Below are positions 1 to 37,377 of a stretch of DNA of 64,000 nucleotides, piece after piece; the first letter of the stretch is position 1; each line of letters begins with the position of its first letter. Under the pieces are notes generated by a model. That model was given only the letters and a program-made list of their open reading frames with translations. It was not told the origin of the DNA and ran no database searches. This stretch comes from an uncultured Acidaminobacter sp. GTDB taxonomy: Bacteria; Bacillota; Clostridia; Peptostreptococcales; Acidaminobacteraceae. Made by a program: the position numbers and the translations under genes. Location of the stretch: contig CAYQDM010000005.1 in assembly GCA_964416305.1 (NCBI GenBank), positions 43,797 through 107,796 of the forward strand. The letters run 5' to 3'.

Positions 1-59
1 CAGGCAGCGAGTGAGAATACTAGGACGAGTGAAAGCAGTAAAGCGACTAACTTTTTCAT
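1..59 (-). CDS. 5' end of a lipoprotein gene (possibly a solute-binding protein); continues past the window start
   Basis: ATG at 59-57 lies 6 nt downstream of GGGAGGA (72-66). Translation is MKKLVALLLSLVLVFSLAA followed by TG-, a lipoprotein-type signal peptide with a lipobox if the next codon is Cys. Only 19 codons are visible. Confidence 0.4.
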   Translation of the reverse strand, partial: MKKLVALLLSLVLVFSLAA

Positions 60-83
60 TCATTTTCCTCCCTGATTGTTTTA

Positions 84-1253: not shown

Positions 1254-1287
1254 TATTAACCCCCTTTTCTATTCAATAAATATCAAA

Positions 1288-1302
1288 GCAAGGTTTGTGC
1301 CA
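1288..1302 (-). promoter_or_regulatory. sigma-54 (-24/-12) promoter
   Basis: The minus strand reads TGGCAC-AAACC-TTGC(T), an exact TGGCAC-N5-TTGCW match. It sits about 35 nt upstream of the ATG at 1253. Confidence 0.65.
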
Positions 1303-1554
1303 ACCCAGTCATTTTTAAGAACATTAACAGAGTTTATTCGAAAAAAATGCAATTTTCTTAATTTGATCTTGCAAATCTCAATCAGAATAGAGAATTTCGA
1401 CATCCTTAAGCATAATATTTCAACATTCTGAATATTTTAAAAATAAAGATGCCTGGGATAACTATGCCAAACATAAAAATGCCATTTCTAAATTGACGCG
1501 CCAGCATAAATTGATGTAACAGCGCATCGGAGAAATGCGGTTCTGCATCAAAAA

Positions 1555-1782
1555 TCATCCTCCAACAATCACCGGGATCACAACAACTTCATCCCCATCC
1601 TTCAATGTGTCGCTATATTTGGCCGGAGTGCCATTTACCAAAAATGTCACTGTCCTAATCATACTTTCTTCAATCTTATGTTCAGTCAACAAACTGAAGA
1701 TGGTAGCGCAGTTGTCTGCGGTCGATAAAACCTGGTTGGATTTCAAGTTTATATAAGAAGCATTCTTAATTGTTATTTTCAC
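1555..1782 (-). CDS. MoaD/ThiS-family ubiquitin-like sulfur-carrier protein (C-terminal GG)
   Basis: Small ORF ending ...DGDEVVVIPVIVGG-stop. The preferred start is GTG at 1782 (VKITIKN...), 8 nt downstream of GCGAGG. The ORF track begins at 1791, also a GTG. Confidence 0.6.
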   Translation of the reverse strand: MKITIKNASYINLKSNQVLSTADNCATIFSLLTEHKIEESMIRTVTFLVNGTPAKYSDTLKDGDEVVVIPVIVGG

Positions 1783-1831
1783 GAAACACACCTCGCTTTA
1801 TGAATTTATTTTCTCTCATGCATCCTTTATA

Positions 1832-1846
1832 GCAATTACAAGGCCA
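1832..1846 (-). promoter_or_regulatory. sigma-54-type promoter (weaker match)
   Basis: The minus strand reads TGGCCT-TGTAA-TTGC(T). The GG and TTGC elements have correct spacing. It lies ~50 nt upstream of the MoaD-like start. Confidence 0.45.
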
Positions 1847-1871
1847 GCGAGTGCACATAATATAATCTTAT

Positions 1872-1913
1872 TTAAAAAAATGTCCTTCCATCAATATGAC
1901 AGTAAGGACATTT
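1872..1913 (-). terminator. Rho-independent terminator after the sigma-54 activator gene
   Basis: Perfect 10-bp inverted repeat AAATGTCCTT / AAGGACATTT, followed on the minus strand by a T7 run. Confidence 0.65.
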
Positions 1914-1988
1914 CAGTTACATCATTTGAGCCGAACCATTTTCTAAGCATTACAAAACCTTAGTGGAAACTCTTTAACGGACATAAGA

Positions 1989-3686: not shown

Positions 3687-3804
3687 ACCATTTGCCCCCT
3701 TATTTAAAGCACTATTTTCGAGTTCCTACCAGGGGATCGCCGACTCTTAATATCAAAAACGCTAGATAGATTCTCTGAAGGTTTTTGGTGTTAAATCTAT
3801 TTTA

Positions 3805-6216
3805 TTAAATATTTCCAAAGGTCAGATTGTCGACAAATAAGTCATTGAAATTATTGTCTTTTGATATATCGATATACTCTGTTAAGTGAACAATTCGCTG
3901 AACACGATCATCATTATTTTTATCAAGTATGTAGTCTACCGCACCACCTAATGCGCTATTGCCAATAGGAACTATCACCTCTTCCAGCTCATGAGGGATC
4001 ATGCCAATTCCAACGGCACTCTTAATGTCCATTTTGCTGCCAAATCCACCCGCAATGAAGACTCGCTTTATATCTTTATAGCTGCAGCCAAATCTCGATA
4101 TCAAAATATCTATCCCTGTACGAATTGCTGATTTTGCCAGTTGCACTTCTCTGAAGTCCTTTTGACTGAATGAAATTTTCGCCGATTCCAGACCTTCTGA
4201 GATCACGATGCCGTCTTTTAACTCAGCGTTTTCTATATGGCCAGTCTCGTTTATAATGCCACAGATGAGCGATGAATATACCATGTCAATTACACCCGAA
4301 CCACAAATGCCAACAGGCGAAAAATTTCCTATCGTAGTAAATTCGAATGTGTCCCCTTCCCTATGAATAGAGTTGATCGCTCCATCAACGCATCCTGTAC
4401 CACAGGATATATTGGCCCCTTCAAAAGCAGGACCTGCAGCCGCAGCAAGACACATCATTTTTCTCTTGTTTCCGATCACCATTTCACCGTTTGTACCAAT
4501 ATCAACAAGCAGAGCAATTTCTTCTTTCAGATCCATGTTACAGTTTAAAACTCCCATTACCAGATCAGATCCTACGTAAGCTGAGATTCCCGGCATAATA
4601 CTCACAAGTGCCTGAATATGATTCCTCTTAAAAATTTCTTCAAAACCGAATTTGTGTTTATTTAAAGTGACAGACAAAAATGGGGCTGAACCTATTGTCT
4701 TGCATTGAATTCCCATAAAAAGATGCAGCATTGTCGTATTGCCTGTTATGACAATGTCGTGTATGCCTCTCGGTTCAACGTCACAGGATTCGCATAGAAC
4801 CTCAATCCCCTTCAACACGTCATCCCGTACCGCATCATTCAACGCGGATAGATTAGCCGCGTCCAGAGAGGCAAATTGAATTCTCGAAATGACATCAGAA
4901 CCGTATTTATTCTGACTGTTCAATACAGAATATCGATCAACCAATTCACCGGTATGCAAATTTACCAGACCAACTACAATGGTCGTGGTCCCTATGTCCA
5001 CAACAAATCCAAATTGCTGCATTCGTTGAGACGTTATGTCGAGTATTTCGCCATCACTCATGTAAAGATAAATTGTCTCCAAATCTCGATTTTCAGCAAT
5101 CAGTTCAGACAGGGCAAATAAGGCTTTCAAAGAAAACTTTCGTTCGTTGACAACCCCTTTAAGCCATTGTAACGCACCGGCTTCATGACTTCGTTTTTGG
5201 GGCAGTGCCACTGGCAAGGTTTCAACCCAAGGATGCAAATCACTCTGGTTCTGAATAAAGTCAGTAATGATTGTACTTTTTCGATTCATAGCTTGAATTT
5301 TGATTGTGCAATTCCGGCTCGGATACGCGCAGCAGGACAACCGGTAACCTGATCTAATCTCCTCATCTGACAGCTTCTTATAATCTGACTCTGTTGCAGG
5401 CAGCTCACCCTCAAGGAGCATAATTTTGCATTTCCCACAAGTCCCATGGCCACCGCATGGTGACACCAGATTTGCCTTTTTCACCAGCGAATGCAGTAAG
5501 CTTTCGCCAGGAGTATATTCCACTTCATAGGAAATTGAATCCTCAATGACGGTTATAATTATGGTCTGGTCGTCTCTAAGAGTGCAATCAGAATTTTCGC
5601 AGTTTTCGCAGCTTTGGTTTCTTTGGATATTTGAAAACGCTTCATCTGCTCCATACAAATACATCATGGATTTTACAGGCTTAAGCATAAAAGAATTCGT
5701 GATGTCCAGCGCTAAGTTCAAATCTGCCCTAAGTGTCTTAAAAATCACTTGTTGGAATGCCATTGGCATGGCAGCATCCCCGGGTGTCACTCTGCAACTC
5801 AATTTTAAACCTAGTGGGTGGCACACGCGAATGATCTCTTCATACATCAAATTACTCATCCTGAATAAATACTCATCCGCTATGACATCCAACATCATTG
5901 CCTCCAAATATTCACCTTCGGTAAATAAACCCTGGATCCTGTCTTCTACCGGCGCTCCCAAGGTAACTGCTGCCCATACGATTTTTTTTGCCCTATTTGC
6001 CGGTTCTATGGAATTAAGTTGGTCTGATTGTTCTGTTAACGAAAAAATCCCTTTGGGGGCAATAAGACCACTGAAATCATTTTCTAGTTTATTGAATACT
6101 TCACAGGCTTCAATATAAGCATCGCTGCCGTCATGACATTTCATTATCCTAAATATTTTCTCTCGATCAAGTTGTATATTAAATTCATTTACAAATTTTA
6201 TCATTTTAATGATCAC
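3805..6216 (-). CDS. Corrinoid reductive activase (RamA/RACo-like ASKHA ATPase with 2Fe-2S ferredoxin domain and an extra N-terminal domain)
   Basis: Plant-type ferredoxin motif CGGHGTCGKCK...C. Downstream ASKHA-type motifs are VVDIGTTTIV, LVDIGTNGE and GICGSG. At 803 aa it is longer than typical activases. Confidence 0.75.
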   Translation of the reverse strand: MIIKMIKFVNEFNIQLDREKIFRIMKCHDGSDAYIEACEVFNKLENDFSGLIAPKGIFSLTEQSDQLNSIEPANRAKKIVWAAVTLGAPVEDRIQGLFTEGEYLEAMMLDVIADEYLFRMSNLMYEEIIRVCHPLGLKLSCRVTPGDAAMPMAFQQVIFKTLRADLNLALDITNSFMLKPVKSMMYLYGADEAFSNIQRNQSCENCENSDCTLRDDQTIIITVIEDSISYEVEYTPGESLLHSLVKKANLVSPCGGHGTCGKCKIMLLEGELPATESDYKKLSDEEIRSGYRLSCCAYPSRNCTIKIQAMNRKSTIITDFIQNQSDLHPWVETLPVALPQKRSHEAGALQWLKGVVNERKFSLKALFALSELIAENRDLETIYLYMSDGEILDITSQRMQQFGFVVDIGTTTIVVGLVNLHTGELVDRYSVLNSQNKYGSDVISRIQFASLDAANLSALNDAVRDDVLKGIEVLCESCDVEPRGIHDIVITGNTTMLHLFMGIQCKTIGSAPFLSVTLNKHKFGFEEIFKRNHIQALVSIMPGISAYVGSDLVMGVLNCNMDLKEEIALLVDIGTNGEMVIGNKRKMMCLAAAAGPAFEGANISCGTGCVDGAINSIHREGDTFEFTTIGNFSPVGICGSGVIDMVYSSLICGIINETGHIENAELKDGIVISEGLESAKISFSQKDFREVQLAKSAIRTGIDILISRFGCSYKDIKRVFIAGGFGSKMDIKSAVGIGMIPHELEEVIVPIGNSALGGAVDYILDKNNDDRVQRIVHLTEYIDISKDNNFNDLFVDNLTFGNI

Positions 6217-6421
6217 GATCCTTTTTTATTATCGCATCATGATGTCTAAAATACGTCTTTTGTTAATACTTAATCGCAAGGAGCAAAAGCTTTTCGTTTT
6301 TCCGCTTCAACTAACACAGTGTGAACGCAAAACCATCTCACACCTAAATGCGAACATCCACGCAGCTTCGATCCGAAGAGCCACATGGATGTTCATTGCC
6401 ACATTCCTGGAGAATTGCAGT

Positions 6422-7072
6422 TTAGCTTATTTTTTCTAGAATCATTTTCTTCGCAGCTTCAGCGGCAGTCGAAGCATCCGGCGCGTAGCAATCGGCACCA
6501 ATCTCTTTGGCAAAATTATTGTTAAGTGGCGCACCACCAACCATAACTATGTATTTGTTTCTTAGATTTCTGTTTTCCAGGTCACTGAGTACATCTTTCA
6601 TATTGCCCATAGTCGATGTCAATAGTGCTGACATTGCAATAACATCCGCGCCATACTCTTCAGCTTTGTCTCCAAATACTTCAGGTGCGACGTCAATTCC
6701 AATATCGATGACCTCCAGGCCAGCGCCTTTCATCATCATAATTACAAGATTCTTTCCAATGTCATGCAAGTCTCCCTGAACTGTGCCCACCACCACTTTG
6801 CCTATTGGCTTTACACCTGATTCCGCAAGCAATGGTTCGAGCACCTTCATCCCAACATTCATGGCTCGCGCTGCAACCAATACTTCAGGTACGTAAACAT
6901 CATTGTTTTTGAACTTGACGCCAATGACGTTCATACCTGCCAGCAATCCATCATTCAAAATTTCACTTGCCGTCAATTTCTCTGCTACAGCTTGTGAAAC
7001 CAGTTCCTGAACCTTTTTAGCATTTCCCTTTTGAACCATTTCAGAAATATTTTCCAACAACATGTCCTTCAC
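6422..7072 (-). CDS. Cobalamin-binding corrinoid protein (MtaC/MtbC/MttC-like)
   Basis: B12-binding DxHxxG motif (GDLHDIGKNLV), followed by a Rossmann-like SALLTST...VMVGGAP and an N-terminal helical cap. Length is 216 aa. Confidence 0.9.
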   Translation of the reverse strand: MKDMLLENISEMVQKGNAKKVQELVSQAVAEKLTASEILNDGLLAGMNVIGVKFKNNDVYVPEVLVAARAMNVGMKVLEPLLAESGVKPIGKVVVGTVQGDLHDIGKNLVIMMMKGAGLEVIDIGIDVAPEVFGDKAEEYGADVIAMSALLTSTMGNMKDVLSDLENRNLRNKYIVMVGGAPLNNNFAKEIGADCYAPDASTAAEAAKKMILEKIS

Positions 7073-7287
7073 TCCCCTAAAGTCTTTTTTATTTAAGTAC
7101 GCATGGCCTCAGCGACATGATCAAACCGGAAGCCGAATAGCATCAGACCGAGGCTCCACCTTGATTATTGTCAGCTTATTATATTGTCTGAATTTTCATC
7201 TATTTGTTCACACTGTATCAAATCTCGTCAAATCTGTTTTGCATTATTTTTTAATTTATCACAATAATATTTGATGTTTTTAAATTC

Positions 7288-8553
7288 TTACATTATTTTT
7301 CCGTGCCTCAAGCGATATTTTCCGGGTGAGGTACCGGTATTTTTTTTGAATACCCTCGAGAAATAACTTTGATCTTCATACCCCACCAGCTCACTTATTT
7401 CAACAATCGTAAATTCATTCTCCAAAAGCAATTTTTTCGCCTGTTCGATTCGCAAGTGATTGAGGTAGGCGTTGAAACTCACCTTCAATTCAGATTTGAA
7501 AATCGTGGAAAAATATGACGAACTATGGTTTACATAGGCAGCGACCTCTTCCAGAGTAATCTTCTTTTGAAAATTCTTTTGCAGAAAATCAACTGCTTTC
7601 AATATGACTTGAGGATGCTTAAGATCATTCTGATCAAAAACTTGTTCAATAAAATGAAGCATGATATGAAATAGCCAAGCGGACAACTCTGCGACAGTTT
7701 TGAAGTCATTGATTTGACTCAGATATTTATATTTTAAACCGAATATTTTTTCAAGCCCGGCACCGCCTTCCAAAGCAGCCCTTGATAATAGGACCACCAG
7801 CTCAAGCACTCGGCCTTTAGCAATTTCAAAATCGTGATTTGAATAGGACGCAATATACAGCAGAATCTCATCCAAAAGACGCTGTGCCTGGACTTTATTG
7901 CCAGATGAAATGAAGGCGAGAAGCTGACGTTCTTTTTCAATAGGGTAAGCTTCCGCTTCTTCTCCCCCACCCATCGTATTGAGATATTTGAGGTATTTTG
8001 AAATATCTCGGCCAAGTGCAGTTTCGTCTTTTACATAATGGACCTGATCCATTCCGTTTATAGAAACGCAGACAGCGGACAACATATGACTGAGCGCTGT
8101 AACGCGTTCAGCCGGAATCTGAGGAATATGCTGAATCCCATTGTTTATAAGTGGGATTTGTTTGCTTTTTATTAGAAATTTATCTATTAACTCCTCAAAA
8201 ACAAATTCCTCATGGCTGTTCAACAAAACCGGTCCACCGACGACCACTGCAAACAGTCCCCCTTCACTATAAACGGGAGAAGCAAAATTCACTAGTCCCA
8301 CAGGGCAGTAAAAGACATATTCGCCGTCAAATCTTTCAGACTGCCGCCCGCTATATAACAGCGACTTTCCGCATTCAACATTAATCTGGGTGATTTCAGA
8401 CAAAATCTCGCAAAGATTACATGCAGGACTTATTGACTGTTCCGATTCATCCAAAAAAATCGCTCGGCACCCAACGCCCGTCGCCATTGAAAATTGTCTG
8501 GTTTTCTCAGTCAATACCTGTTTACACTTCAGCGCTGCTATTGAACTCCCCAT
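7288..8553 (-). CDS. PocR-sensor / AraC-family transcriptional regulator
   Basis: The N-terminal half is a Cys-rich PocR-like ligand domain. The C-terminus is an AraC HTH (LEEVAAYVNHSSSYFSTIFK...YEDQSYFSRVFKKNTGTSPGKYR). Confidence 0.8.
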   Translation of the reverse strand: MGSSIAALKCKQVLTEKTRQFSMATGVGCRAIFLDESEQSISPACNLCEILSEITQINVECGKSLLYSGRQSERFDGEYVFYCPVGLVNFASPVYSEGGLFAVVVGGPVLLNSHEEFVFEELIDKFLIKSKQIPLINNGIQHIPQIPAERVTALSHMLSAVCVSINGMDQVHYVKDETALGRDISKYLKYLNTMGGGEEAEAYPIEKERQLLAFISSGNKVQAQRLLDEILLYIASYSNHDFEIAKGRVLELVVLLSRAALEGGAGLEKIFGLKYKYLSQINDFKTVAELSAWLFHIMLHFIEQVFDQNDLKHPQVILKAVDFLQKNFQKKITLEEVAAYVNHSSSYFSTIFKSELKVSFNAYLNHLRIEQAKKLLLENEFTIVEISELVGYEDQSYFSRVFKKNTGTSPGKYRLRHGKIM

Positions 8554-8783
8554 AATCTTCCTCCTGACAAACTATTCAAAGCGTTCACCGTTTGATTATT
8601 TCGAATCATTTATGTATTCCGAAAATTTTTAACATTATTTATCACTTTTTAAAAGATGGATTGCCGGCGTATCAGTAAAATGGGCTTAACCTGTTATAGC
8701 ACTCCAGGCAGTCAGAAAGTTATCGCTTAAAGTCATCGACATGACATAACAGACTATTATTGGAAAAATCGAGGAGGACTGAC

Positions 8784-9584
8784 ATGATCATTATTGGAGA
8801 AAAAATCAATAGTACTTTAAAAGCCATTCGCCCTGCCATGGAATCTCGCGATCATTCAACCATTCAGGAACTTGCCATACGCCAGAGAGATGCGGGCGCC
8901 GCCTATATTGACGTAAACGCCGGCATGTTCCACAACAATGAACCAGAAGTTCTGAAATGGCTGATTCATACAATACAGGAAGTCTGTGATACTCCATTTT
9001 CAATTGATTCTCCAAGCGCAAACGGTATTTTATCAGGTCTGAAAGCAAATCGAAATTCGAAACCCATTATTAATTCAATCACTGGGGAAAAGGACAGATT
9101 TAATACCATCCTGCCGCTCGTGGCTGAATATAAAACAGGTGTTGTGGCATTATGCATGGACGATCGTGGAATGCCGGAAACTGTTCACGAGCGATTCGAG
9201 GTTGCAGAAACCCTGATTAAAAATTTGACCAGAGAAGGCATTCCGCTGGATGATATCTACATTGATCCACTTGTCAGACCAATCGGAACCGGTTCTCATT
9301 ATGGGATGCTTGCTATTGAAACGATCCGAAATGTAAAGAACGCCTATCCCGAAGTACATATTGCCTGCGGTCTGAGTAACGTATCGTTTGGTATTCCTGC
9401 TCGAAAAATAATGAATCAAACCTTTCTGGTCGCTGCAATGGCAGCCGGTATGGATGGCGCTATTTTGGATCCGCTTGACAAAAAACTCATGGCTTATTTG
9501 TACGCAACTGAAGCTCTTCTCGGTAGAGATGAGTACTGCCTGAATTACCTCGATAAATTCCGCCAGGGTGAACTCGAATTCTAG
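8784..9584 (+). CDS. Methyl-corrinoid:tetrahydrofolate methyltransferase (pterin-binding, AcsE/MtrH/MT-II-like)
   Basis: MIIIGEKINSTLKAIRPAME...AGAAYIDVNAG is the typical N-terminus of pterin-binding (DHPS-like) methyltransferases. The ATG at 8784 lies 6 nt after GAGGAGG. The ORF-track TTG at 8760 was rejected. Confidence 0.8.
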   Translation: MIIIGEKINSTLKAIRPAMESRDHSTIQELAIRQRDAGAAYIDVNAGMFHNNEPEVLKWLIHTIQEVCDTPFSIDSPSANGILSGLKANRNSKPIINSITGEKDRFNTILPLVAEYKTGVVALCMDDRGMPETVHERFEVAETLIKNLTREGIPLDDIYIDPLVRPIGTGSHYGMLAIETIRNVKNAYPEVHIACGLSNVSFGIPARKIMNQTFLVAAMAAGMDGAILDPLDKKLMAYLYATEALLGRDEYCLNYLDKFRQGELEF

Positions 9585-9685
9585 CCGTCAATTTCATTGA
9601 TTATGCAAAAGGATTCGCTAGCGAAACCCGGCCAAGTTATTCCGAGTGATCTTTACTTCTTAGGTCGAAAGGACTGATATCCGAA

Positions 9686-10483
9686 ATGCTGCATCATATT
9701 GAAAATAGAATCTATCATGTTGAAATTCTTCCGCCTAAACAGGATACCGAAAAACTAACAGCAGATCTTGCCCTTTTCGCGGATAAATACAACAAAGCCT
9801 TAGAAATTGGTTCATGCATCTGTCTGACGGACAACGCTATGGGGAATTTGGCGTTTCAAGGCACTGAAGTCATAGAAGAACTTGAGCTGCCGGTAAAATC
9901 TGATCAAGTCATGATCCATCTGAACACTTTTCATACCCTCGAAGACTTGAAAAATATTTTGAATAAATGTAAAGCCTTAGGTATCAAATATCTTTTAGTC
10001 ATCAGTGGTGACGGTTCTGACCGACTTCCAAAATTACAAGCCGCAGATCTCAATTTAACTGACACCACAACGGTAACTTCTGTGGAATTGCTAAGCTACA
10101 TTCACCGTGAATATCCAAATGAGTTTATATTGGGCGTTGCTTTCAATCCCTATGAACCTGCTGAGCATGAATTTCATAAATTGGAAAGGAAATTGAAAGC
10201 TGGTGCAGCATTTATTGTGACCCAACCTGTGATCGAATCAAATGAAATTATTAATCAATTATTGAATCTTTATCCTGCCATTCCGGTTGTTATTGAAGCC
10301 TGGATGAGCAAGAAGCTGCATCTTCTATCTGAAGCTGTAGGTTACGAGATCCCGGAAAATACTGAGTTTGATCCCATTGAAACTTTGAAAATGCTGCATA
10401 AAATTTATCCGAACTGCGGCGTCTACCTTTCTCTTCTTAGCTTTAAAACTCAGTTTGATCTGCTCAGCGAAACATGGATCTGA
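9686..10483 (+). CDS. Methylenetetrahydrofolate reductase (MetF)-like protein, short paralogue
   Basis: MTHFR-family landmarks occur in order: VEILPPK, MIHLNTFHT, YLLVISGDG, LGVAFNPYEPAEHE, KLKAGAAFIVTQPV, IPVVIEAWM. Length is 265 aa. Confidence 0.65.
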   Translation: MLHHIENRIYHVEILPPKQDTEKLTADLALFADKYNKALEIGSCICLTDNAMGNLAFQGTEVIEELELPVKSDQVMIHLNTFHTLEDLKNILNKCKALGIKYLLVISGDGSDRLPKLQAADLNLTDTTTVTSVELLSYIHREYPNEFILGVAFNPYEPAEHEFHKLERKLKAGAAFIVTQPVIESNEIINQLLNLYPAIPVVIEAWMSKKLHLLSEAVGYEIPENTEFDPIETLKMLHKIYPNCGVYLSLLSFKTQFDLLSETWI

Positions 10484-10502
10484 TGCACGAGGAGGAATAC
10501 CA

Positions 10503-11291
10503 ATGAAAATAGTGGTCTGCATTAAACAGGTTCCTGCAACCAACGAAGCCAAAATTGATCCTGAAACCAAACGAATTTTACGCGAAGATGTTAAAGCTAT
10601 ATTAAATCCATTTGACCATTACGCCATAGAAGAAGCGATCCGACTGAGAAATAAATTCGGCGGCGAAGTCATTGCGCTTTCGATGGGTCCGGACAAAGCG
10701 GTGCGCGTGCTTCGCGAAGCTATTTCAATGGGGGCGGATCACGCTGTTCTTCTTAACGACAGAGCATTTGGGGGTTCAGATACTTGGGCGACCAGTTATG
10801 CACTGGCAAAAGCCATTAAGAAAATTGGTCAAGTAGATTTAGTGCTTTGCGGCAAACAGGCAATCGACGGTGACACTGCACAAGTAGGACCCGGTATTTC
10901 TGCTCATCTGAATTGGATGCAAGCTACCTACGTTATGGAAATTAATATTTTAAGCCCGCATCAAATGAGGGTAAAACGAATGAATGAAATGGGTTATGAT
11001 ATATGCCTTCTTGAAACACCTGCCGTTCTGTCGGTAGTCAAGGGCATCAATACGCCGCGAGTTCCGACACTCAAAGGCAGAATTGCATCCGACCGCTATG
11101 AGGTTCCGGTTTGGACTCCGGCTGATCTGGATGCAAATATTGATAATCTGGGACTAAATGGTTCTCCTACTCGCGTTGTTAAAACACAACCCCCAGCACC
11201 AAGAGAAAATATTACAAAAATAATTGAAGGTGCCCCTCAGATCTGCGCACAGTCTCTAATTAATGAATTACGCCTTCGCAATTTATTGTGA
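10503..11291 (+). CDS. etfB: Electron transfer flavoprotein beta subunit
   Basis: MKIVVCIKQVPATNE... N-terminus. CGKQAIDGDTAQVGP motif at 10866-10892. The ATG lies after a GAGGAGGA RBS. Confidence 0.9.
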   Translation: MKIVVCIKQVPATNEAKIDPETKRILREDVKAILNPFDHYAIEEAIRLRNKFGGEVIALSMGPDKAVRVLREAISMGADHAVLLNDRAFGGSDTWATSYALAKAIKKIGQVDLVLCGKQAIDGDTAQVGPGISAHLNWMQATYVMEINILSPHQMRVKRMNEMGYDICLLETPAVLSVVKGINTPRVPTLKGRIASDRYEVPVWTPADLDANIDNLGLNGSPTRVVKTQPPAPRENITKIIEGAPQICAQSLINELRLRNLL

Positions 11292-11306
11292 TCGGAGGAT
11301 CCCCTA

Positions 11307-12326
11307 ATGAGAATTAACGAAACAGATAAACTTGACTTCAGAAATGTCTGGGTAGTTGCCGACTTACTCGTCGGGAAAATTCAATCTGTCACCCATGAAT
11401 TAATTGGTTCAGCTAGAAATTTGGCGGATCTTCGCGGCTCCGAAGTTTGGGTCATTGTCATGGGTGATGCCGTGTCCATTGAAGCATCATCATTATTCGC
11501 ATACGGCGCGGATTGTGTCGTTGCAATTGATGATCCTCTCCTAAAAAACTTTGTCGACGAACTGGAAGCTAATCTGCTGACACGACTAATCCAAAAGTAT
11601 AAGCCCGAAATTGTACTGTGTGCTGCTACCGCCAGAGGCCGTGCCTTGATTCCACGCGTCTCGGTTATGACCGATTGTGGTTTGACTGCAGATTGTACGG
11701 AATTGAGCATCGATCCCGAAAACGGTGACTTGCTCCAGACCCGTCCTGCTTTCGGAGGCAATATTCTGGCTACGATCCGAAGCTCCAACCATAGGCCCCA
11801 GATGGCAAGCGTTCGTCCTCGAGTCATGATCTCACCAGAACCTGACTTTAGCCGAACAGGTAATGTAATCATAGAATCTATTCAAGAATCTGATCTCTGC
11901 AACATCAAACAAGTTGTCGAAGTTGTTCAAGATTTAGAATATTCTGTGAATATTGCAGATGCAAATATCATTATCGCGGGTGGCAGGGGCATGAAAGGCG
12001 CTGAAGGTTTTGAACTGTTGAAGCAGATGAATGAATACTTTGGTGGCGCAGTTGGTGCAAGCCGCGCTGCAGTTGACGCCGGGTGGATTCCCTATTCTCA
12101 CCAGGTAGGTCAAACCGGCCAAACAGTACAAACAAGTGTCTATATTGCTTGTGGCATATCAGGTCAGATCCAGCATCTGGTGGGCATGCAGTCATGCGAC
12201 CTGATTATTGCCATCGATAAAAATCCAAATACACCCATGATGCAAATGGCTGATATTGCTGTTGTTGGAGATATTTTTGAGATCGTTCCGGAAATCATCC
12301 ATGAACTTCGTTCCGCACAGCCCTAA
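11307..12326 (+). CDS. etfA: Electron transfer flavoprotein alpha subunit
   Basis: The C-terminal FAD-binding region ASRAAVDAGW...QVGQTGQTV...YIACGISGQIQH is typical of EtfA. There is no N-terminal ferredoxin domain. Confidence 0.9.
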   Translation: MRINETDKLDFRNVWVVADLLVGKIQSVTHELIGSARNLADLRGSEVWVIVMGDAVSIEASSLFAYGADCVVAIDDPLLKNFVDELEANLLTRLIQKYKPEIVLCAATARGRALIPRVSVMTDCGLTADCTELSIDPENGDLLQTRPAFGGNILATIRSSNHRPQMASVRPRVMISPEPDFSRTGNVIIESIQESDLCNIKQVVEVVQDLEYSVNIADANIIIAGGRGMKGAEGFELLKQMNEYFGGAVGASRAAVDAGWIPYSHQVGQTGQTVQTSVYIACGISGQIQHLVGMQSCDLIIAIDKNPNTPMMQMADIAVVGDIFEIVPEIIHELRSAQP

Positions 12327-12640
12327 TCAAAGATTCCAGACAAAGAAATTTGCATGTCGTCCGGCATAACTTGTCAGTCGTTCTGATCCGGACAAGGCAT
12401 AGCCGAGCTAAAACGAATCCCTCCCCCCTTTCTTATAATTATTTTTACAACAAAATTTGTTGTCACCTCATTAATAGCACTTTCATCTATGGGGTGTTTT
12501 CTTTTGTGAAGAAAATGAATAATCACGAGTTAAGTTCGGTTTCCTTATTTCTCCAAACAGCTGCCAATCATCAAAATATCAGCATCTTATATATTTTTAA
12601 TTCACCTGAACTCTTCCCACAGCCTATTGCCATGTTTAAA

Positions 12641-13480
12641 TTATTCCCGGTCAATATTTCCATTTATGCTTCTTCTGAACTGAGTAGGTGTCATACCGAC
12701 TCTCGACTTGAATGATGCAATAAAAATAGAAGGATTGTTGTAGCCGCATGCCGCTGAAATATTCCTGATACTCATACCTGAGTTAAGAAGCAGCCTCTTG
12801 GCGTTGCTGATCCTTTGAGTAATCAAATACTCATAAGGTGAAATTCCATATTGTTTCTGAAACTGCCTGGTAAAATAGAAAACACTTAACCCAACCTCAC
12901 TGGCAACCTCAGTTATAGATAGCTGCTTCTCGAAATTTTGTCTTAAATACGCTTCAGCAGATGCAACAGCAAGATCTGCAGACTTTGTCCGAGCCGATCC
13001 GTTCTCCGAAAGCATTGCCAAAAGTCTATGAATCGAAACTGATAACATATGTTCCAATGAACTCTCGCTTCTGAGCAATCCCATTAAGAATTTAAATTCC
13101 TGTTCAATTAATGTTGGGTCTTTGATTACAATGGGCTCACCGTATTCTTTCGCCAGCAGTTCACTATACGCAAAAACCGAATTGCCTCGAAAGTGAACCC
13201 ATTTAAATGTTATTGACTCTTTGGATGAATATTTGTGAGGCTTTCTGCAGTCTAAAAAAACACATTCACCACGACCGACACTAATAACTTTTTCACCTTG
13301 TTCGACTTGTAACTCTCCTTTTTCTATGTACATCAATAAAAGACTATCCAGATAATCTCTTTCAATTTTGTAATCGCTGATCCCAAAATATTCACCCGCA
13401 AGCTCAACATAATAAAGATGTTCCTTTGCAAACGCAGAGGGATTCAATGAGAAAACACTGGTTGTCATATTTTTCTCCAT
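12641..13480 (-). CDS. AraC-family transcriptional regulator (cupin sensor + HTH)
   Basis: The C-terminal AraC HTH pair is ITEVASEVGLSVFYFTRQFQK...ISAACGYNNPSIFIASFK. It is divergent from the methyltransferase gene at 13745. Confidence 0.85.
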   Translation of the reverse strand: MEKNMTTSVFSLNPSAFAKEHLYYVELAGEYFGISDYKIERDYLDSLLLMYIEKGELQVEQGEKVISVGRGECVFLDCRKPHKYSSKESITFKWVHFRGNSVFAYSELLAKEYGEPIVIKDPTLIEQEFKFLMGLLRSESSLEHMLSVSIHRLLAMLSENGSARTKSADLAVASAEAYLRQNFEKQLSITEVASEVGLSVFYFTRQFQKQYGISPYEYLITQRISNAKRLLLNSGMSIRNISAACGYNNPSIFIASFKSRVGMTPTQFRRSINGNIDRE

Positions 13481-13744
13481 AAGACCTCCAAATCGAACAC
13501 GTCTTTACGTCATTATACAGCAAGATATATGAATTAAAAAGTATATTTTATTTGCAATAACAAAAATCACATTGAAAACCCTTCAATTTTCTCAAATAAG
13601 AGAGCTAAAAAACAAATTTATATTTTTATGAAAAAGCAAGATTTATATATTCAAGCATATTTTGATTATAGATTTGACAATTAATGAATGTTAGAATATT
13701 TATAATATTCAAAATACAATTTAATAATCGAGGGTGATCGTACA

Positions 13745-14791
13745 GTGTCAACTTTAAGAGAACGAAATTTAAGACGTCTTCAAGAAAGTATTGCGGGTAA
13801 GAAATCTGATGGTCATGCTGTTTTTCATTTTTATACTTTTCCTTTTTTTCAATCTGTAACAGGCGTTAACCTTGATGACTATTTTCACAAACCAGAAGTG
13901 ACACTGCAGTGCCAGTATGAAGCCTTGGAATTGTTGGACGGGATCGGCAACCTGGTGCCTGACATGGGTTCCGTCGCAGAAGCCAGTGGTTTGGGAAGTA
14001 TTGTCTTATTTGATAAAAAAGGCTTTATCTCTGCACATCCTAACCCCAAAATTGCAGAGGCATTTGATGCCAGCGACTTAGATTGGCTGGAACCCGCAGA
14101 TCCGTATGGTGACAATTACATGGCAAAAGCATTGACAACACTCCAATATATGGTAGATCACTGTCCGGAAGGTTATCGAGTGAATCCCCATCCGCTTATG
14201 GGCCCTTTTACCGTAGGTGCAATGTTGAGAGGAATCAGCGACTTTTGCGCGGATACAATTTCTGAACCTGATTTAGTGAACAAAATTCTTGATGTCGTCG
14301 TTGAGACACAAATAAGATTCTTAAAAGCGCAGGAAAAGATTCTTGGTACACTTCATCATGTTTTAGTCGCGGATGATCTATCTGCTTTTCTGAATGAGCA
14401 ATCCTTCAGAGAAATAATTTTGCCTAGATACGAACAAATATTTAAAGAGTTTCCCAACACCCAAAGATGGCTGCACAATGATTCAACTGCGCGCCACGTC
14501 GCAACCGCAATCGCTGATTCTGGCATGGTTGCCTGGCAATACCTTCCGGATATCGCTCCGCAGGATGCACTTGAGCTGACCAGAGGAGAAGTTACTCTGC
14601 TGGGCGGTTTGAGTCCACTGGATCTGCAAAAATGGACAGCAGAGGAAACCTACGAAAAATGCATCGAAACATTAAAATCATTCGACGGCAATAACCGCTG
14701 TGTTCTGGCAGCCGGAGGTTCCATCAATCAGGTGCCAATAGAGAATCTCAAAGCTATGTTCAAAGCTGCTGACGACTATAAAATTGACTGA
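13745..14791 (+). CDS. URO-D-fold corrinoid methyltransferase (second MT-I-like paralogue)
   Basis: 348-aa ORF with a GTG start after GAGGGTGA. The N-terminal RERNLRRLQESIAGKKSDG and overall pattern resemble the URO-D/MtaA family. It is weaker than 84-1253. Confidence 0.65.
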   Translation: MSTLRERNLRRLQESIAGKKSDGHAVFHFYTFPFFQSVTGVNLDDYFHKPEVTLQCQYEALELLDGIGNLVPDMGSVAEASGLGSIVLFDKKGFISAHPNPKIAEAFDASDLDWLEPADPYGDNYMAKALTTLQYMVDHCPEGYRVNPHPLMGPFTVGAMLRGISDFCADTISEPDLVNKILDVVVETQIRFLKAQEKILGTLHHVLVADDLSAFLNEQSFREIILPRYEQIFKEFPNTQRWLHNDSTARHVATAIADSGMVAWQYLPDIAPQDALELTRGEVTLLGGLSPLDLQKWTAEETYEKCIETLKSFDGNNRCVLAAGGSINQVPIENLKAMFKAADDYKID

Positions 14792-15013
14792 AGTAAGTTA
14801 ACTGAAACACAATGCGGCACACCTAAATCCAAATGAATACAAGTCACTTTCTTAAACCAGTGATGCGCTATTACCTCAGAGTCGATGCGGCAATGCATCA
14901 AAATCGTCGCAAACTGTACCGATGCCATGCCCCGCCTAAGGCCTCACAACATTTTACATACTCAGCGCTGAATAATTTGTTGAAAAATGATCACGCGTAA
15001 ACTTAATTTCAGC

Positions 15014-15075
15014 ACCTCCTGTAAAGTTGCTCCAGCAGGCCCCATGCGAGCACTCTGCAGGAGGTTTCTTTATTC
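15014..15075 (+). terminator. Stem-loop with U-rich tail (possible terminator of the 13745 transcription unit)
   Basis: ACCTCCTG ... CAGGAGGT outer stem with an inner TGCTC/GAGCA stem, followed by TTTCTTTATT. The long loop makes it atypical. Confidence 0.35.
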
Positions 15076-15205
15076 CACGTCAGTAAGCATCCGAACGAAA
15101 CCGAATGCAGCCGGATCTTCTTCCGCTATTAATAAACCGTGAACAACGCGACTTTATGAATCCAATTATAATAAAAAACAGCACCCTCATTTTTGTTCCC
15201 TGCTT

Positions 15206-15221
15206 TGGCATGCATATTGCA
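15206..15221 (+). promoter_or_regulatory. sigma-54 (-24/-12) promoter
   Basis: T-TGGCAT-GCATA-TTGCA-T on the plus strand, a near-consensus TGGCAC-N5-TTGCW. It lies ~420 nt upstream of the ADH start. Confidence 0.6.
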
Positions 15222-15501
15222 TTATATAAAGTCATCAGCCCTAGGTACGCACCCCATCTGCGAATGCCCAGCCCGACCGACCGCCTGCAAGTCTCAAATA
15301 CATCCCCTTCTGTTTACAACTGAATATTTCAGCTTTTTTCGAGTTGCATCACCTAAGGCAGTGTCAAGCGCTATGGTCTGCAACCTGGGTTTATTGGAGA
15401 AATCCATAAGCCTCCCACTATCGGAAAGATCAGAGCCTGACTATCCAATCAACTTCAATGATGATTCTCTTATGAGATTATTTGAAGTTATGGTTCTTTA
15501 C

Positions 15502-15532
15502 GGTGCTCACTTTCTGGGCACCTATTTTTTTT
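15502..15532 (+). terminator. Intrinsic terminator inside the leader upstream of the ADH gene
   Basis: 8-bp stem GGTGCTCA / TGGGCACC with loop CTTTC, followed by TATTTTTTTT. Confidence 0.6.
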
Positions 15533-15643
15533 GAGGAGGTAGATCTCGATACCAAAACTGCAGCCATTTAATGCAATCGCTATTCAACAACAAATAATTT
15601 GAAGCTGTTTCCTGTTCTTTTACAACGAAATGGAGGATGCAAA

Positions 15644-16684
15644 ATGAAAGCAGTTCAGTTCACCGGTCCAGAAAATATGACATATGTTGACGTTCCAGAT
15701 CCCATCATTAGCGAAAGTGAAGTTCTCATAAAAATAATGGCTGTTGGAATCTGCGGCACAGATCTTGAGCTCTTCAGCGGCGAAATGCCTTATATAAGAA
15801 ACGGGTTCACTACCTATCCTCTTATCCCTGGGCATGAATGGTCAGGTCAAATAGTTGAGGTTGGAAGCAAAGTTCCCAATTTCAAGGTCGGGGACCGAGT
15901 AACCGGTGATGTGAGCATTGGCTGCGGCAGTTGCAGCATGTGCATGAGCGGACGGTTTAACCTATGTCCGAACAGAAAAGTTGTAGGCTCTTACAGAAAC
16001 TACAACGGTGCTTTTGCAGAGTACATCAAATTGCCTTACAGACATGTTTACTTATTGCCGGATACATTGAGTTATGAAGAGGCCGCACTCATAGAGCCTG
16101 CAGCCACCGCCGCCTATGGTGTGATGAAAGCAGGTATTGGTTTGGGAGATTCCGTATTGGTGATCGGAGACGGTCCGATAGGATTACTATCCGTCCAGAC
16201 TGCTTCACTATCTGGTGCGAGCAGGATTTATTTGATGGGCAGTTGGGACGAAAAACTGAAATTGGGATCTAAAATGGGTGCGGATTTTACTATTAATTAT
16301 CGAAATGATAATATCGTAGAAACCATACAAGAGATGACACAATTTAAAGGCATCGACGTGGTTATTGAAACCTCAGGCAGCACAAAAGCCTTCAATCAAT
16401 CCTTGAAGCTGCTAAAGCCGGGTGGGAAGATTATTCTGTTGAGCATTTATTCAAGCTCTGAATTCATGGCAGAAATTAACAGCATTGTATCGAAGGATGC
16501 AGAAGTGATTGGCGTATTGGCAAGCTGCAATTCTTTCAAGCCAACAATTGAATTGCTGGCGGCCGGAAAAATCAATGTGCTGCCACTCATCACCCACAAA
16601 TATCCATTGAGCAGAGCCTCTGAAGCTATAAACATGATGCGGACGAAGAAAGATTTCAGAATAAAAGTACTGTTGTTCCCCTAA
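15644..16684 (+). CDS. Zn-dependent medium-chain alcohol/polyol dehydrogenase (sorbitol/threonine dehydrogenase-like)
   Basis: The catalytic-Zn region is GICGTDLE...PGHEWSG. The structural-Zn cysteines are CGSCSMCMSGRFNLC. The NAD fold is VIGDGPIGL. The ATG at 15644 follows GGAGGA. Confidence 0.85.
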   Translation: MKAVQFTGPENMTYVDVPDPIISESEVLIKIMAVGICGTDLELFSGEMPYIRNGFTTYPLIPGHEWSGQIVEVGSKVPNFKVGDRVTGDVSIGCGSCSMCMSGRFNLCPNRKVVGSYRNYNGAFAEYIKLPYRHVYLLPDTLSYEEAALIEPAATAAYGVMKAGIGLGDSVLVIGDGPIGLLSVQTASLSGASRIYLMGSWDEKLKLGSKMGADFTINYRNDNIVETIQEMTQFKGIDVVIETSGSTKAFNQSLKLLKPGGKIILLSIYSSSEFMAEINSIVSKDAEVIGVLASCNSFKPTIELLAAGKINVLPLITHKYPLSRASEAINMMRTKKDFRIKVLLFP

Positions 16685-16692
16685 GCTTCTAA

Positions 16693-17502
16693 GTGCGCGC
16701 TTTGACTTTTACAATGACGGGAGTGATAGAAGTGAGTGAAGCCTATCAAAAAATTATGGCTGCAAAATTGAAAAAAGACGAAATTGCAATTCTATGGCTA
16801 GGTCAGGCAGGATTTCTTATCAAAGATGATAACAGCACAATTGTCGCCATAGATCCCTACCTTTCTGACTGTGGAGAAAGGTTAAAAGGATTCGTCAGGT
16901 GCTCACCCAAATCGATTACCGCTGACGAATTAAAGCCTGATTTATACGTTACAACACATCTGCATTTTGATCACTTTGACTACGATACCCTGCCAATAGT
17001 CGCCAGCCACAGTGATTCAATTTTCCTCGGACCCGAATCCTGCTGCCTGAAATTCGCCGAATACAATTTGGAGCCCGCCCGAATAATGCAATTGAATCTT
17101 CAAAAAGAAATTGAATACAAAAACATAAAAATTACCGCAGTCTTTGCAGATCACGGCAGCTTGTCCCCAGATGCGATTGGAATTTTAATGAATTTTAATG
17201 GCATTATTCTTTATTTTTCAGGCGACACCGCCTATAGGCCGGAACAATTAACCTGGCTTGCAGACAACCCACCCGACATTTCATTTCTATCTATCAATGG
17301 TAAATTTGGTAACCTGAATGCCTCCGAAGGCGCTCGACTCGCACATGATATAAAGACCAAAAACGCCGTGCCATGCCATTACGGTACATTCAGTGAACAT
17401 GGCGGAGATCCATTGAGTTTCGCCGCTGAAATGAGCTTACTCGCCCCAGACTGCCAGGTCATTTGCATGGAGCAAAGCGAACTGCTTCTATTCCATAAAT
17501 GA
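16693..17502 (+). CDS. MBL-fold metallo-hydrolase (UlaG-like lactonase family)
   Basis: WLGQAGFLIKDD..., the metal motif THLHFDHFD, a later ADHG, and CHYGTF. The exact start is uncertain: the GTG at 16693 or an internal GTG after GGGAG. Confidence 0.7.
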   Translation: MRALTFTMTGVIEVSEAYQKIMAAKLKKDEIAILWLGQAGFLIKDDNSTIVAIDPYLSDCGERLKGFVRCSPKSITADELKPDLYVTTHLHFDHFDYDTLPIVASHSDSIFLGPESCCLKFAEYNLEPARIMQLNLQKEIEYKNIKITAVFADHGSLSPDAIGILMNFNGIILYFSGDTAYRPEQLTWLADNPPDISFLSINGKFGNLNASEGARLAHDIKTKNAVPCHYGTFSEHGGDPLSFAAEMSLLAPDCQVICMEQSELLLFHK

Positions 17503-17520
17503 TGAAATTAAGAACCAAAC

Positions 17521-17566
17521 AAGCAAAGAGCGCTTGCCTATTCGCTTAAGGCAGCGCTCTTTGCTT
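17521..17566. terminator. Bidirectional terminator between convergent genes
   Basis: 18-bp near-perfect inverted repeat AAGCAAAGAGCGCTTGCC / AGGCAGCGCTCTTTGCTT. Confidence 0.7.
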
Positions 17567-17594
17567 GGCAAGTTGTGTGAAATTTTATTCAGCC

Positions 17595-18884
17595 TCAGGT
17601 CAAAATCCTGAGTTTCTCTATCCTGTTTTTCTCAATACTCTCTACGACAAACTCAACATTGGCGTGCTCGATGCGCTCTCCTACTTCAGGCAGTCTGCCA
17701 AATTCACCTATAATAAAACCGCCTATGGAATCAAAATCCTCGGTCTCAATGCGAAGTCCAAGCATTTCATTGACCACATCAATCTTTGTTGAACCGTCCA
17801 CAATATACTCATCTTCCTGGATCACTTCTATGGAAACCTCGTGGTCGTCATATTCATCCTGGATATCGCCCACGATCTCTTCGACAAGGTCTTCCAGCGT
17901 GACCATACCCGCCGTCCCGCCATATTCATCCAGGACTATGGCAATGGCGGCGCGTTTCGACCTCATCTCAGCGAAAAGTTCGCTGGTCATCTTGAATTCG
18001 TATGTGAAATAAGGTTCCCTGATAAAATCCTCTATCTTGAACGCATTCTGGAGCGGCTCATAAAATATCAGATCTTTGACATTTAAAAGGCCAATGATAT
18101 TATCCGGCGTCTCGTCATAAACAGGGATTCTCGAAAACCTTTCGCTTTTGAAAATATCTACAATTTCCTTAAATTCCGTACTCTTCTCAACCATAACCAT
18201 GTCCGTACGCGGGGTCATGACATCTCCAACCTGAGAGTCACCAAACTCAAATACGTTGTAAATCATTTTCTTTTCATCGACCTCAAGCACACCTTCTTCA
18301 TGGCTGACCGTCACCATGGTCTTGAGCTCTTCCTCTGTAATGAACGGCCGGTCTTTGTCAGGGCTTCCGCCCATCATCTTGATCAAAAGTCCGGTCACAA
18401 ACATTATGGCTGTCAGAACCGGCGTCAGAAGCACCATGAGAATGGAAATAGGTGCAGCGACTTTAAGCGCGATTTGTTCGGAGCGCTCCGAAGCGATCGA
18501 CTTTGGCGTAATTTCACCGAAGATCAAAACGAGCAGCGTCATGACCCCCGTCGAGATCCCAATCCCTTTGACAGGGCCAAAAAGCGTTATGGCTATTGAA
18601 GTAGCCAATGCAGATGAGGCTATGTTGACTATGTTATTGCCGACCAGTATGGCACCCAGCATATGACTTGGAGATTTTAAAAGTCGGGAAACACGTTCCG
18701 CGCCTTTTACATTTTCTTCCAACATATGTCTGAGTCTGATTTTGCTGAGTGACATCAGCGCCGTCTCCGAGGCAGAGAAAAATGCCGACATCATTAAAAG
18801 TACAATCAGTAAAATACTCTGCCATAAGTCACTAGGTTCCAATTCAATCACACTCCAAAATTTTGTTAGTTGCTTAAATTGCAT
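17595..18884 (-). CDS. CNNM/DUF21-CBS-CorC family membrane protein (hemolysin-like, TlyC/CorB type)
   Basis: N-terminal DUF21 TM region (FFSASETALMS), a CBS pair, and a C-terminal CorC_HlyC domain (...VESIEKNRIEKLRI). Confidence 0.85.
   Translation of the reverse strand: MQFKQLTKFWSVIELEPSDLWQSILLIVLLMMSAFFSASETALMSLSKIRLRHMLEENVKGAERVSRLLKSPSHMLGAILVGNNIVNIASSALATSIAITLFGPVKGIGISTGVMTLLVLIFGEITPKSIASERSEQIALKVAAPISILMVLLTPVLTAIMFVTGLLIKMMGGSPDKDRPFITEEELKTMVTVSHEEGVLEVDEKKMIYNVFEFGDSQVGDVMTPRTDMVMVEKSTEFKEIVDIFKSERFSRIPVYDETPDNIIGLLNVKDLIFYEPLQNAFKIEDFIREPYFTYEFKMTSELFAEMRSKRAAIAIVLDEYGGTAGMVTLEDLVEEIVGDIQDEYDDHEVSIEVIQEDEYIVDGSTKIDVVNEMLGLRIETEDFDSIGGFIIGEFGRLPEVGERIEHANVEFVVESIEKNRIEKLRILT

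Positions 18885-33484: not shown

Positions 33485-34891
<1,407 letters not shown>

Positions 34892-35826: not shown

Positions 35827-37377
<1,551 letters not shown>

Follow-up and report, generated by a model that had tools for sequence, protein, structure and literature searches.

What does a methylenetetrahydrofolate reductase (MTHFR)-like protein do beside both subunits of an electron-transfer flavoprotein (Etf) of the bifurcating type? The question is raised by positions 9686-12326 of a 64,000-nucleotide stretch of DNA from an uncultured Acidaminobacter sp. (contig CAYQDM010000005.1, positions 43,797 to 107,796 of the forward strand; hereafter, the window). Three genes follow one another there on the plus strand, encoding a 265-aa MTHFR-like TIM-barrel protein (9686-10483), EtfB (10503-11291) and EtfA (11307-12326). 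The methylene-/methyl-tetrahydrofolate (THF) step, at -200 mV, has repeatedly been named the main uncertainty in anaerobic one-carbon (C1) energetics, and its electron partner is a matter of long debate; ferredoxin coupling would conserve energy in the reductive direction, and the oxidative direction is not drivable by NAD+ alone. We consider it probable, on balance, that the three genes encode a three-subunit flavoenzyme in which the MTHFR-like protein and the bifurcating-type EtfB/EtfA carry out a confurcating oxidation of methyl-THF, for demethylation-derived methyl groups on their way to formate. We regard the finding as real, and strong comparative evidence supports this interpretation.

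Gene order and sequence features of the trio

The open reading frames (ORFs), their Pfam matches and the intergenic distances (101 nt from the upstream methyltransferase gene, MT2, to the MTHFR-like gene, 19 nt from there to etfB, and 15 nt from etfB to etfA) agreed with the initial annotation in placing three closely packed genes downstream of MT2. Its statement that each gene has a strong ribosome-binding site held for etfB (GAGGAGG, 7 nt 5' of the ATG) and etfA (GGAGGA, 7 nt 5' of the ATG), and failed for the MTHFR-like gene, which has only a modest site of the AAGGA type. A mechanical ORF call had started etfB at a TTG at 10455; we discarded this start as spurious, the homologue and PDB alignments all starting at MKIVVC. 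The genes in the window were close together and did not overlap, so that calling them translationally linked was too strong. True translational-coupling geometry, absent from the window, was seen in a Lentisphaerae locus, where the MTHFR-like stop overlaps the etfB start by 4 nt (8795-8798). Co-transcription of the trio is suggested by the gene spacing; promoter and terminator scans of the region stayed at chance level, and no terminator-like fold was found 3' of etfA.

We then scanned one genome per GTDB species, which gave 50 loci in Clostridia (including Saccharofermentanales, Oscillospiraceae and rumen metagenome-assembled genomes, MAGs), termite-gut Treponema and other Spirochaetota, Atribacterota and Lentisphaeria. 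The results showed that etfB lies directly 3' of the MTHFR-like gene in 42 of the 43 loci with room for it, and that etfA follows in 36 of 37. The adjacency of the MTHFR-like gene and etfB is far beyond chance. The same gene order was found on additional contigs from Phycisphaerae, Lentisphaerae, Rectinema and Clostridium thermosuccinogenes, the last being the sole cultured host seen. The initial annotation had proposed a dedicated module of the three genes, and their order was indeed kept across several phyla. Across 37 loci, the identities of the MTHFR-like protein, EtfB and EtfA to the window copies co-varied (r 0.86-0.93), and the trio is therefore inherited as one unit. No other dehydrogenase gene recurred beside the module in the related loci.

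Two apparent Rosetta-stone fusions of MT2 to the MTHFR-like protein (P0157 and P0210), in which MT2 is truncated, occurred on high-GC metagenome contigs. Their junctions resemble frameshift or assembly artefacts, and we did not use them as evidence of fusion; they do confirm that the MT2 and MTHFR-like genes are adjacent. In one Spirochaetaceae locus (L030, positions 6454-8637 and 9894-12416), the etfA stop is also where a 727-aa ORF starts, which looked hydantoinase/ASKHA-like by eye only.

The MTHFR-like protein matched PF02219 (MTHFR) at 51.6 bits (cut-off 24), with coverage limited to profile positions 10-188 of 287. The NCBIfam MetF equivalogs TIGR00676 and TIGR00677 scored 35.0 and 41.7 bits, below their cut-offs of 293.7 and 310, and the closest PDB sequence match had an E value of 0.0014. 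When 1.84 billion cluster representatives were searched exhaustively with HMMER, only 23 clusters reached E <= 1e-30, and canonical MTHFRs appeared from about 1e-7. A word-indexed search yielded 1137 relatives, of which the best 120 were all 68-100% identical and 265-287 aa long. By these comparisons, the MTHFR-like proteins form a compact, highly conserved clade distinct from canonical MetF.

An AlphaFold2 model built on a 56-member alignment (pLDDT 90.6, pTM 0.89) comprised eight strand-helix units, which predicts a complete TIM barrel. In a Foldseek search with this model against the PDB, the top 37 matches were all MTHFRs or proteins resembling them (TMq 0.58-0.73, lowest E 6.6e-13), the best having a TMq of 0.66-0.73, and the identity of the barrel to the solved MTHFRs among them was 13-20%. 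Flavin-free mycobacterial MTHFRs ranked lower, as did the methyl-THF-binding Cthe_2304 of Clostridium thermocellum (3ijd; TMq 0.62, 12% identity). The latter, an uncharacterised MTHFR-fold protein crystallised with two 5-methyl-THF molecules, is a further orphan barrel of the MTHFR-like kind, and its host is a cellulolytic clostridium.

To map residues, we used MAFFT to align the protein with E. coli MetF and with sequences of the MetFV type, and conservation was read over the 56 family members. A profile alignment to E. coli MetF alone had been confined to the central core and had displaced strand 3, an error that the MAFFT alignment with the MetFV-type sequences resolved. The results showed that E13, H78, D109, R168-K169 and T179-Q180 are the equivalents of Glu28, His88, Asp120, Arg171-Lys172 and Thr182-Gln183 in the E. 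coli enzyme, that the AGA motif is kept, and that Thr59 corresponds to T48, which lies within a TDN motif typical of MetFV-type enzymes. E13, H78, D109, K169, the AGA motif, T179 and Q180 were invariant in all 56 members, R168 was nearly so, and the conservation of T48 fell below the 90% threshold. In E. coli MTHFR, Glu28, Asp120, Gln183 and Phe223 are catalytically essential, and the first three contact the pterin (PMC11868366). H78, SGD, R168-K169 and AGA are conserved equivalents of residues in the FAD region of the E. coli protein, and the barrel subunit probably carries a substrate-side flavin. The folate and flavin residues that the initial annotation had asked about were thus kept, within a full modelled MTHFR-like barrel, with the exception of the equivalent of Phe223. 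Features specific to the family are a GDGSxRLPKL insertion after strand 4, the motifs VTSVEL and EAWMSKK, and a shortened C-terminal third. For MetV, we found no ORF containing GPCGG in the window or in 53 related loci, the single match being an antisense artefact, and we rejected MetV or another iron-sulfur partner for the MTHFR-like protein after finding none in the window and the related loci.

The Etf subunits were recognised by PF01012 (EtfB, 149.9 bits) and by PF01012 plus PF00766 (EtfA, with a C-terminal FAD domain). Their class was assigned by comparing bit scores against five solved bifurcating Etfs (CarD, A. fermentans, C. difficile, T. maritima and LctB, as named for the beta subunit) with those against canonical ETFs. 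EtfB scored 194-213 bits against the bifurcating proteins, compared with 88-98 bits against canonical ETF beta from human, Paracoccus and Methylophilus and 59 bits against the Geobacter protein (5ow0). EtfA scored 247-305 bits against the solved bifurcating chains, compared with 98-139 bits against full-length canonical alpha chains. For both subunits, the scores against all five bifurcating Etfs were thus roughly double those against canonical ones, which upholds the earlier placing of EtfB in the bifurcating (two-FAD) group 2. The motif on which that placing relied, DGDTAQVGP, is encoded exactly at 10866-10892 (plus strand; EtfB residues 122-130). In the printed alignments, the stretch IDGDTAQVG was common to the window EtfB and CarD, and IDGDTAQVGP was present in the A. 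fermentans EtfB. The EtfA alignment begins at residue 67 of CarE and LctC, so the window EtfA lacks their N-terminal ferredoxin-like (iron-sulfur) domain; in domain content it resembles the Bcd-type EtfA. Among NCBIfam models, the acryloyl-CoA reductase Etf subunits were the closest for EtfA and the second-closest for EtfB.

Demethylase and C1 neighbours

The gene immediately upstream of the trio encodes MT2, a pterin-binding methylcorrinoid:THF methyltransferase (8784-9584, plus strand; NF005719, 356 bits), whose top PDB match was 4o0q from D. hafniense. We compared the MT2 proteins of three lineages with those of the O-demethylase, AcsE and MetH types. The window protein scored 223.5 bits against 4o0q, 155-193 against AcsE-type proteins and at most 85 against MetH. 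The corresponding scores were 297, 139-143 and at most 71 bits for termite Treponema, and 245, 123-134 and at most 68 bits for rumen Clostridia. Wherever tested, the MT2 adjoining the module is therefore of the O-demethylase type.

Folate C1 genes were also frequent around the module. A tblastn census of the 50 loci found an MT2 homologue in 34, Fhs in 16, a FocA-type channel in 10, FolD in 6 and FchA in 4. In a Pfam census of 127 flanking ORFs, the top families besides MT2 were FTHFS (10), the formate/nitrite transporter (7) and FolD (4), and FTCD_C/FchA (3), URO-D (3) and B12-binding (2) were also frequent. No CODH/ACS family recurred among the module neighbours checked, that is, in the annotated flanks and the Pfam census.

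In the window, the MT1, corrinoid protein, MT2 and activating enzyme of an O-demethylase-type system are all encoded together. The minus strand carries a URO-D family protein, the candidate substrate:corrinoid methyltransferase (MT1; 84-1253; PF01208, 76 bits; no sequence match in the PDB), a RACo-type reductive activase of corrinoid proteins with a 2Fe-2S domain (3805-6216; RACo_C_ter, Raco_middle and Fer2), and a corrinoid (B12-binding) protein (6422-7072; PF02310 and PF02607, with MtgC-like NCBIfam matches below cut-off). A regulator with a PocR sensor and an AraC-type domain (7288-8553, minus strand; PocR and HTH_18) is divergent from the unit formed by MT2, the MTHFR-like gene and etfBA. 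An AraC-family regulator (12641-13480, minus strand; HTH_18 and AraC_binding) is convergent with etfA and marks the 3' end of the unit. A sigma-54 activator was seen upstream of the unit, among the minus-strand genes of the demethylase region. A second methyltransferase candidate of the URO-D / MtaA-CmuA family follows at 13745-14791 (plus strand; PF01208, 80.5 bits; weak match to MtaA, 4ay7). The trio had been described as lying inside a corrinoid methyltransferase operon. This is correct as to a gene cluster and not as to an operon, as MT2 alone is co-directional, the corrinoid protein, RACo and one URO-D gene being on the opposite strand.

The window, an Atribacterota locus (L011) and a Rectinema locus (L064) each have a full demethylase set around the module. 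The Atribacterota locus has URO-D, PocR, corrinoid protein, MTHFR-like protein, EtfB, EtfA, MT2 and RACo genes on a single strand. As in the window, a PocR/AraC-type regulator adjoins the module in both of these loci and in L063.

Base composition sets this region apart. GC content was 0.38-0.44 in the demethylase/MTHFR-like/Etf region (window 1-18000) versus 0.47-0.56 in most of 18000-64000. Because of this low GC and of the roughly 70% identity of the trio across phyla, the sequence suggests that the region may be a horizontally acquired island. About 0.8 kb 3' of the second URO-D gene, a zinc-dependent alcohol dehydrogenase and a metallo-beta-lactamase-fold protein are encoded at 15599-17502, and these genes may belong to the methylated-substrate pathway.

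Glycoside hydrolases, carbohydrate esterases, CBM proteins and rhamnose genes surround the module in C. thermosuccinogenes (L001), rumen Clostridia (L042), another Clostridia MAG (L008) and Phycisphaerae (L055). The Lentisphaerae module likewise lies among glycoside hydrolases and carbohydrate esterases. These carbohydrate-active genes hint that the methyl donors may be methylated carbohydrates of plants or algae, or pectin-derived methanol.

Predicted reaction and competing explanations

In the mechanism that we propose, MT1 of the URO-D type would move the substrate methyl group to the Co(I) of the corrinoid protein, with RACo reactivating the latter, and MT2 would hand the methyl group to THF. 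The MTHFR-like subunit would then take a hydride from methyl-THF onto its own flavin, leaving methylene-THF, and from this flavin the mobile FAD domain of EtfA would relay electrons singly to the FAD of EtfB. At this FAD, they would meet electrons supplied by reduced ferredoxin or flavodoxin, and NAD+ would be reduced. Overall, the reaction would be CH3-THF + Fd(red) + 2 NAD+ -> CH2-THF + Fd(ox) + 2 NADH, near equilibrium and reversible. In the relatives, FolD/FchA and Fhs could convert methylene-THF to formate with a gain of one ATP, and the formate would leave by the FocA-type channel. The methylene-/methyl-THF couple lies at -200 mV, so that oxidation of methyl-THF with NAD+ alone is uphill (-200 versus -320 mV), and the reaction coupled to NADH and ferredoxin amounts to about -5 kJ/mol in the reductive direction (PMC5861303). 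The sequences and the model establish the gene content, the fold, the conserved residues, the Etf type, the synteny and the C1 context; that the three proteins form a complex, that the barrel subunit holds a flavin, that the complex couples to ferredoxin and that it runs oxidatively is inferred.

Several observations weigh against this proposal. On the barrel side, the position of Phe223 aligns to S208 after a 3-residue deletion, so that the equivalent of this residue is lost, with an invariant W206 nearby. The flavin-free MTHFRs 7wmz and 8qpj are among the fold matches, and the barrel flavin is predicted from conserved residues. On the Etf side, a group-2 sequence is no guarantee of ferredoxin coupling, and the acryloyl-CoA reductase-Etf of C. 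propionicum is reportedly non-bifurcating. As to gene content, the trio stands without a corrinoid or MT2 gene within 8-10 kb in many loci, including that of C. thermosuccinogenes; fhs, folD and focA are all missing from the 64-kb window; and where they do adjoin the module, they are uninformative on the direction of the reaction. Within the Etf-linked subfamily itself, L013 and L063 have no etf beside the MTHFR-like gene, and a sister subfamily of 259-262 aa in Desulfobacterales (L059-L061, gene 10001-10789) stands alone next to an MFS transporter, in surroundings free of etf, MT2 and C1 genes.

Of the two subfamily members without etf, L013 (8001-11755) encodes the MTHFR-like protein with Fhs and FocA, and in L063 (8001-8789) the MTHFR-like gene has the PocR/AraC regulator on one side and an Nramp transporter on the other, with genes for the glycine-cleavage P-protein close by.

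The first alternative is a complex that works without ferredoxin, the Etf being a plain relay to NAD(H) or to a high-potential acceptor such as an enoyl-CoA reductase or a membrane Etf-oxidising enzyme. The rank of the acryloyl-CoA reductase Etf models among the NCBIfam matches of both subunits fits such a relay, as does the missing ferredoxin-like domain of CarE and LctC. In Fusobacterium, a canonical ETF couples lactate oxidation directly to crotonyl-CoA reduction (PMC12630350). However, a relay to NAD+ alone would have to run uphill across the potential gap given above, EtfB retains the second-FAD-type sequence common to proven bifurcating Etfs, and no second acceptor gene recurs in the neighbourhoods. 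The absence of the EtfA domain also loses force, as Bcd-type Etfs bifurcate without it (5ol2 and 4kpu are among the top matches). We consider a ferredoxin-independent relay unlikely.

The same complex could also run reductively, as a bifurcating methylene-THF reductase for formate or CO2 assimilation and acetogenesis, with MT2 giving the methyl group to the corrinoid protein. A reaction near equilibrium permits this, fhs-folD-fchA-focA clusters suit formate uptake and reduction equally well, and the cluster is present in termite-gut Treponema MAGs. Cultured termite treponemes include acetogens. Yet the neighbouring MT2s are of the O-demethylase and not the AcsE type in all three lineages tested, CODH/ACS genes were not found in the annotated flanks, and the modules of the window and of the Atribacterota and Rectinema loci are embedded in demethylase sets with RACo and PocR regulators. 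A reductive role seems to us quite improbable in view of these neighbours.

It is very improbable that the MTHFR-like protein is a housekeeping anabolic enzyme that replaces MetF and supplies methyl-THF for methionine with the Etf as donor. An identity of about 70% across distant lineages would be expected of a constrained core enzyme, and in C. thermosuccinogenes, as in several other hosts, no demethylase genes accompany the trio. Against this, the methyltransferases next to the module do not resemble MetH, an accessory module is suggested both by the patchy distribution and by the low-GC island, and the linkage to RACo, corrinoid protein, PocR and URO-D genes has a catabolic character. Also encoded on the Spirochaetaceae contig of locus L030 are a homocysteine S-methyltransferase and, as a YitJ-type protein, a homocysteine-methyltransferase/MTHFR fusion; because of this fusion on the same contig, the module is not the only MTHFR of that organism. 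The fusion and the non-MetH-like MT2s led us to reject a sole anabolic MTHFR as the principal explanation.

Another job for the Etf, such as supplying the low-potential electrons that RACo needs for corrinoid reactivation (RACo lies near the module in the window, L011 and L064, and a bifurcating Etf could serve as donor), or a non-folate substrate for a barrel only 13-20% identical to solved MTHFRs, is just as remote, since RACo occurs in few loci compared with the near-universal MTHFR-like-etfBA order, the pterin-contacting residues are invariant and the neighbours are folate C1 enzymes.

Confurcating oxidation of methyl-THF is thus the explanation that we favour, and a broader proposal, which we offer tentatively as a real possibility, can be built on it. 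The trio may constitute a fifth Etf-based flavin bifurcating class and a new MTHFR type, catalysing 2 NADH + Fd(ox) + methylene-THF <-> 2 NAD+ + Fd(red) + methyl-THF reversibly. Such an enzyme would be the MTHFR with ferredoxin coupling that has long been postulated in the C1 metabolism of anaerobes. Horizontal transfer would have carried it among anaerobes associated with polysaccharides and lignin (Clostridia, termite and other spirochaetes, Atribacterota, Lentisphaerae and Phycisphaerae) and would underpin an unrecognised methyl-to-formate fermentation. If true, this would give Etf-based bifurcation a new partner fold, add a type to the MTHFR classifications, and account for the disposal, by anaerobes that are not acetogens, of methyl groups from methoxylated or methylated plant and algal compounds, with formate as an interspecies electron carrier in the rumen, termite gut, digesters and sediments. 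Because a dedicated etfBA adjoins a divergent MTHFR gene in dozens of genomes, including one cultured host, a long-standing hypothesis becomes directly testable with three small genes.

Known relatives and the rest of the window

Coupling of EtfAB to MTHFR has been proposed before; it was considered unlikely for C. ljungdahlii, since each etfAB of that organism comes with a dehydrogenase of its own, and it was set aside for model acetogens on the ground that their metF has no etfAB next to it (PMC8515935). This agrees with the initial annotation, which had called such a link proposed and undemonstrated. The MTHFR groups described in the same paper (MetF alone, flavin-free, MetFV, MetFV-RnfC2, MetFV-HdrABC-MvhD and NuoEFG-linked) include none with an Etf (PMC8515935), nor do the MTHFR types 1-4 of another classification (PMC11868366). 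The Etf partners listed in surveys of bifurcating enzymes are Bcd, CarC, LctD and FixCX. We found no description of a MetF-Etf enzyme in the searchable literature, which leaves subscription journals largely outside its coverage. The trio is best classed as combining two known kinds of system, the Etf-dependent dehydrogenase complex and the multi-subunit MTHFR.

Among Etf-dependent dehydrogenases, LctBCD of A. woodii (7qh2) is the best functional analogue. It has a bifurcating-type Etf (194 bits to the window EtfB and 249 bits to EtfA), and its substrate couple, at -190 to -200 mV, is likewise unable to reduce NAD+ alone, a problem solved by confurcation with reduced ferredoxin. It differs in that its dehydrogenase is LctD, which acts on lactate and involves no MTHFR-like barrel and no folate, and in that LctC has an N-terminal iron-sulfur domain. 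Bcd-EtfAB and CarCDE (5ol2, 4kpu and 6fah) contain the closest solved Etf subunits (205-213 bits for EtfB and 247-305 bits for EtfA), and their dehydrogenase gene also lies beside etfBA. However, their partner has the acyl-CoA dehydrogenase fold, reduces enoyl-CoA at high potential and works in the reductive direction.

Among multi-subunit MTHFRs, the MetFV types (C. ljungdahlii MetFV, A. woodii MetVF-RnfC2 and M. thermoacetica MetFV-HdrABC-MvhD) share the motifs TDN (not TYG), SGD, NPY and TQP with the trio barrel, which would likewise need a separate electron-transfer module. In contrast to them, the trio has no MetV or iron-sulfur subunit in any locus and has EtfAB instead, and its barrel is shorter, with GDGSxRLPKL and EAWMSKK. 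The type 4 MTHFRs (S6MTHFR) of aerobes, as in Sphingobium ligM-metF-ligH and Methylorubrum cmu, resemble the proposed system in that a demethylase yields methyl-THF for a dedicated neighbouring MTHFR that does not use NAD(H) directly. They are single-subunit, aerobic enzymes with an unknown electron acceptor and mostly accompany THF-dependent LigM/DesA/Dmt demethylases, whereas the hosts of the trio are strict anaerobes, their demethylase is corrinoid-dependent and the candidate acceptor, the Etf, is encoded in cis. The trio's neighbours, MT2, B12-binding, RACo and URO-D proteins, are accordingly not those of type 4, which are LigM-type (LigM/DesA/Dmt/CmuAB).

The corrinoid O-demethylases of Desulfitobacterium and Acetobacterium correspond to the window system in the corrinoid protein, RACo and URO-D-type methyltransferases and in an MT2 closest to 4o0q. 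In the searchable literature, those described pass methyl-THF to the general Wood-Ljungdahl MTHFR, and no dedicated MTHFR-Etf module was found for them. In mitochondria, dimethylglycine and sarcosine dehydrogenases carry out folate-linked demethylation and send their electrons to the canonical one-FAD ETF and the aerobic respiratory chain; their fold is unrelated, and methyl-THF is not an intermediate.

Elsewhere in the window, an F-type ATP synthase is apparently encoded within 33485-40355 on the minus strand, with an alpha/beta-family subunit at 35827-37374. A V/A-type ATPase is apparently encoded within 54757-63965, also on the minus strand, with the A and B subunits at 56761-59952 and the I subunit at 61434-63419.

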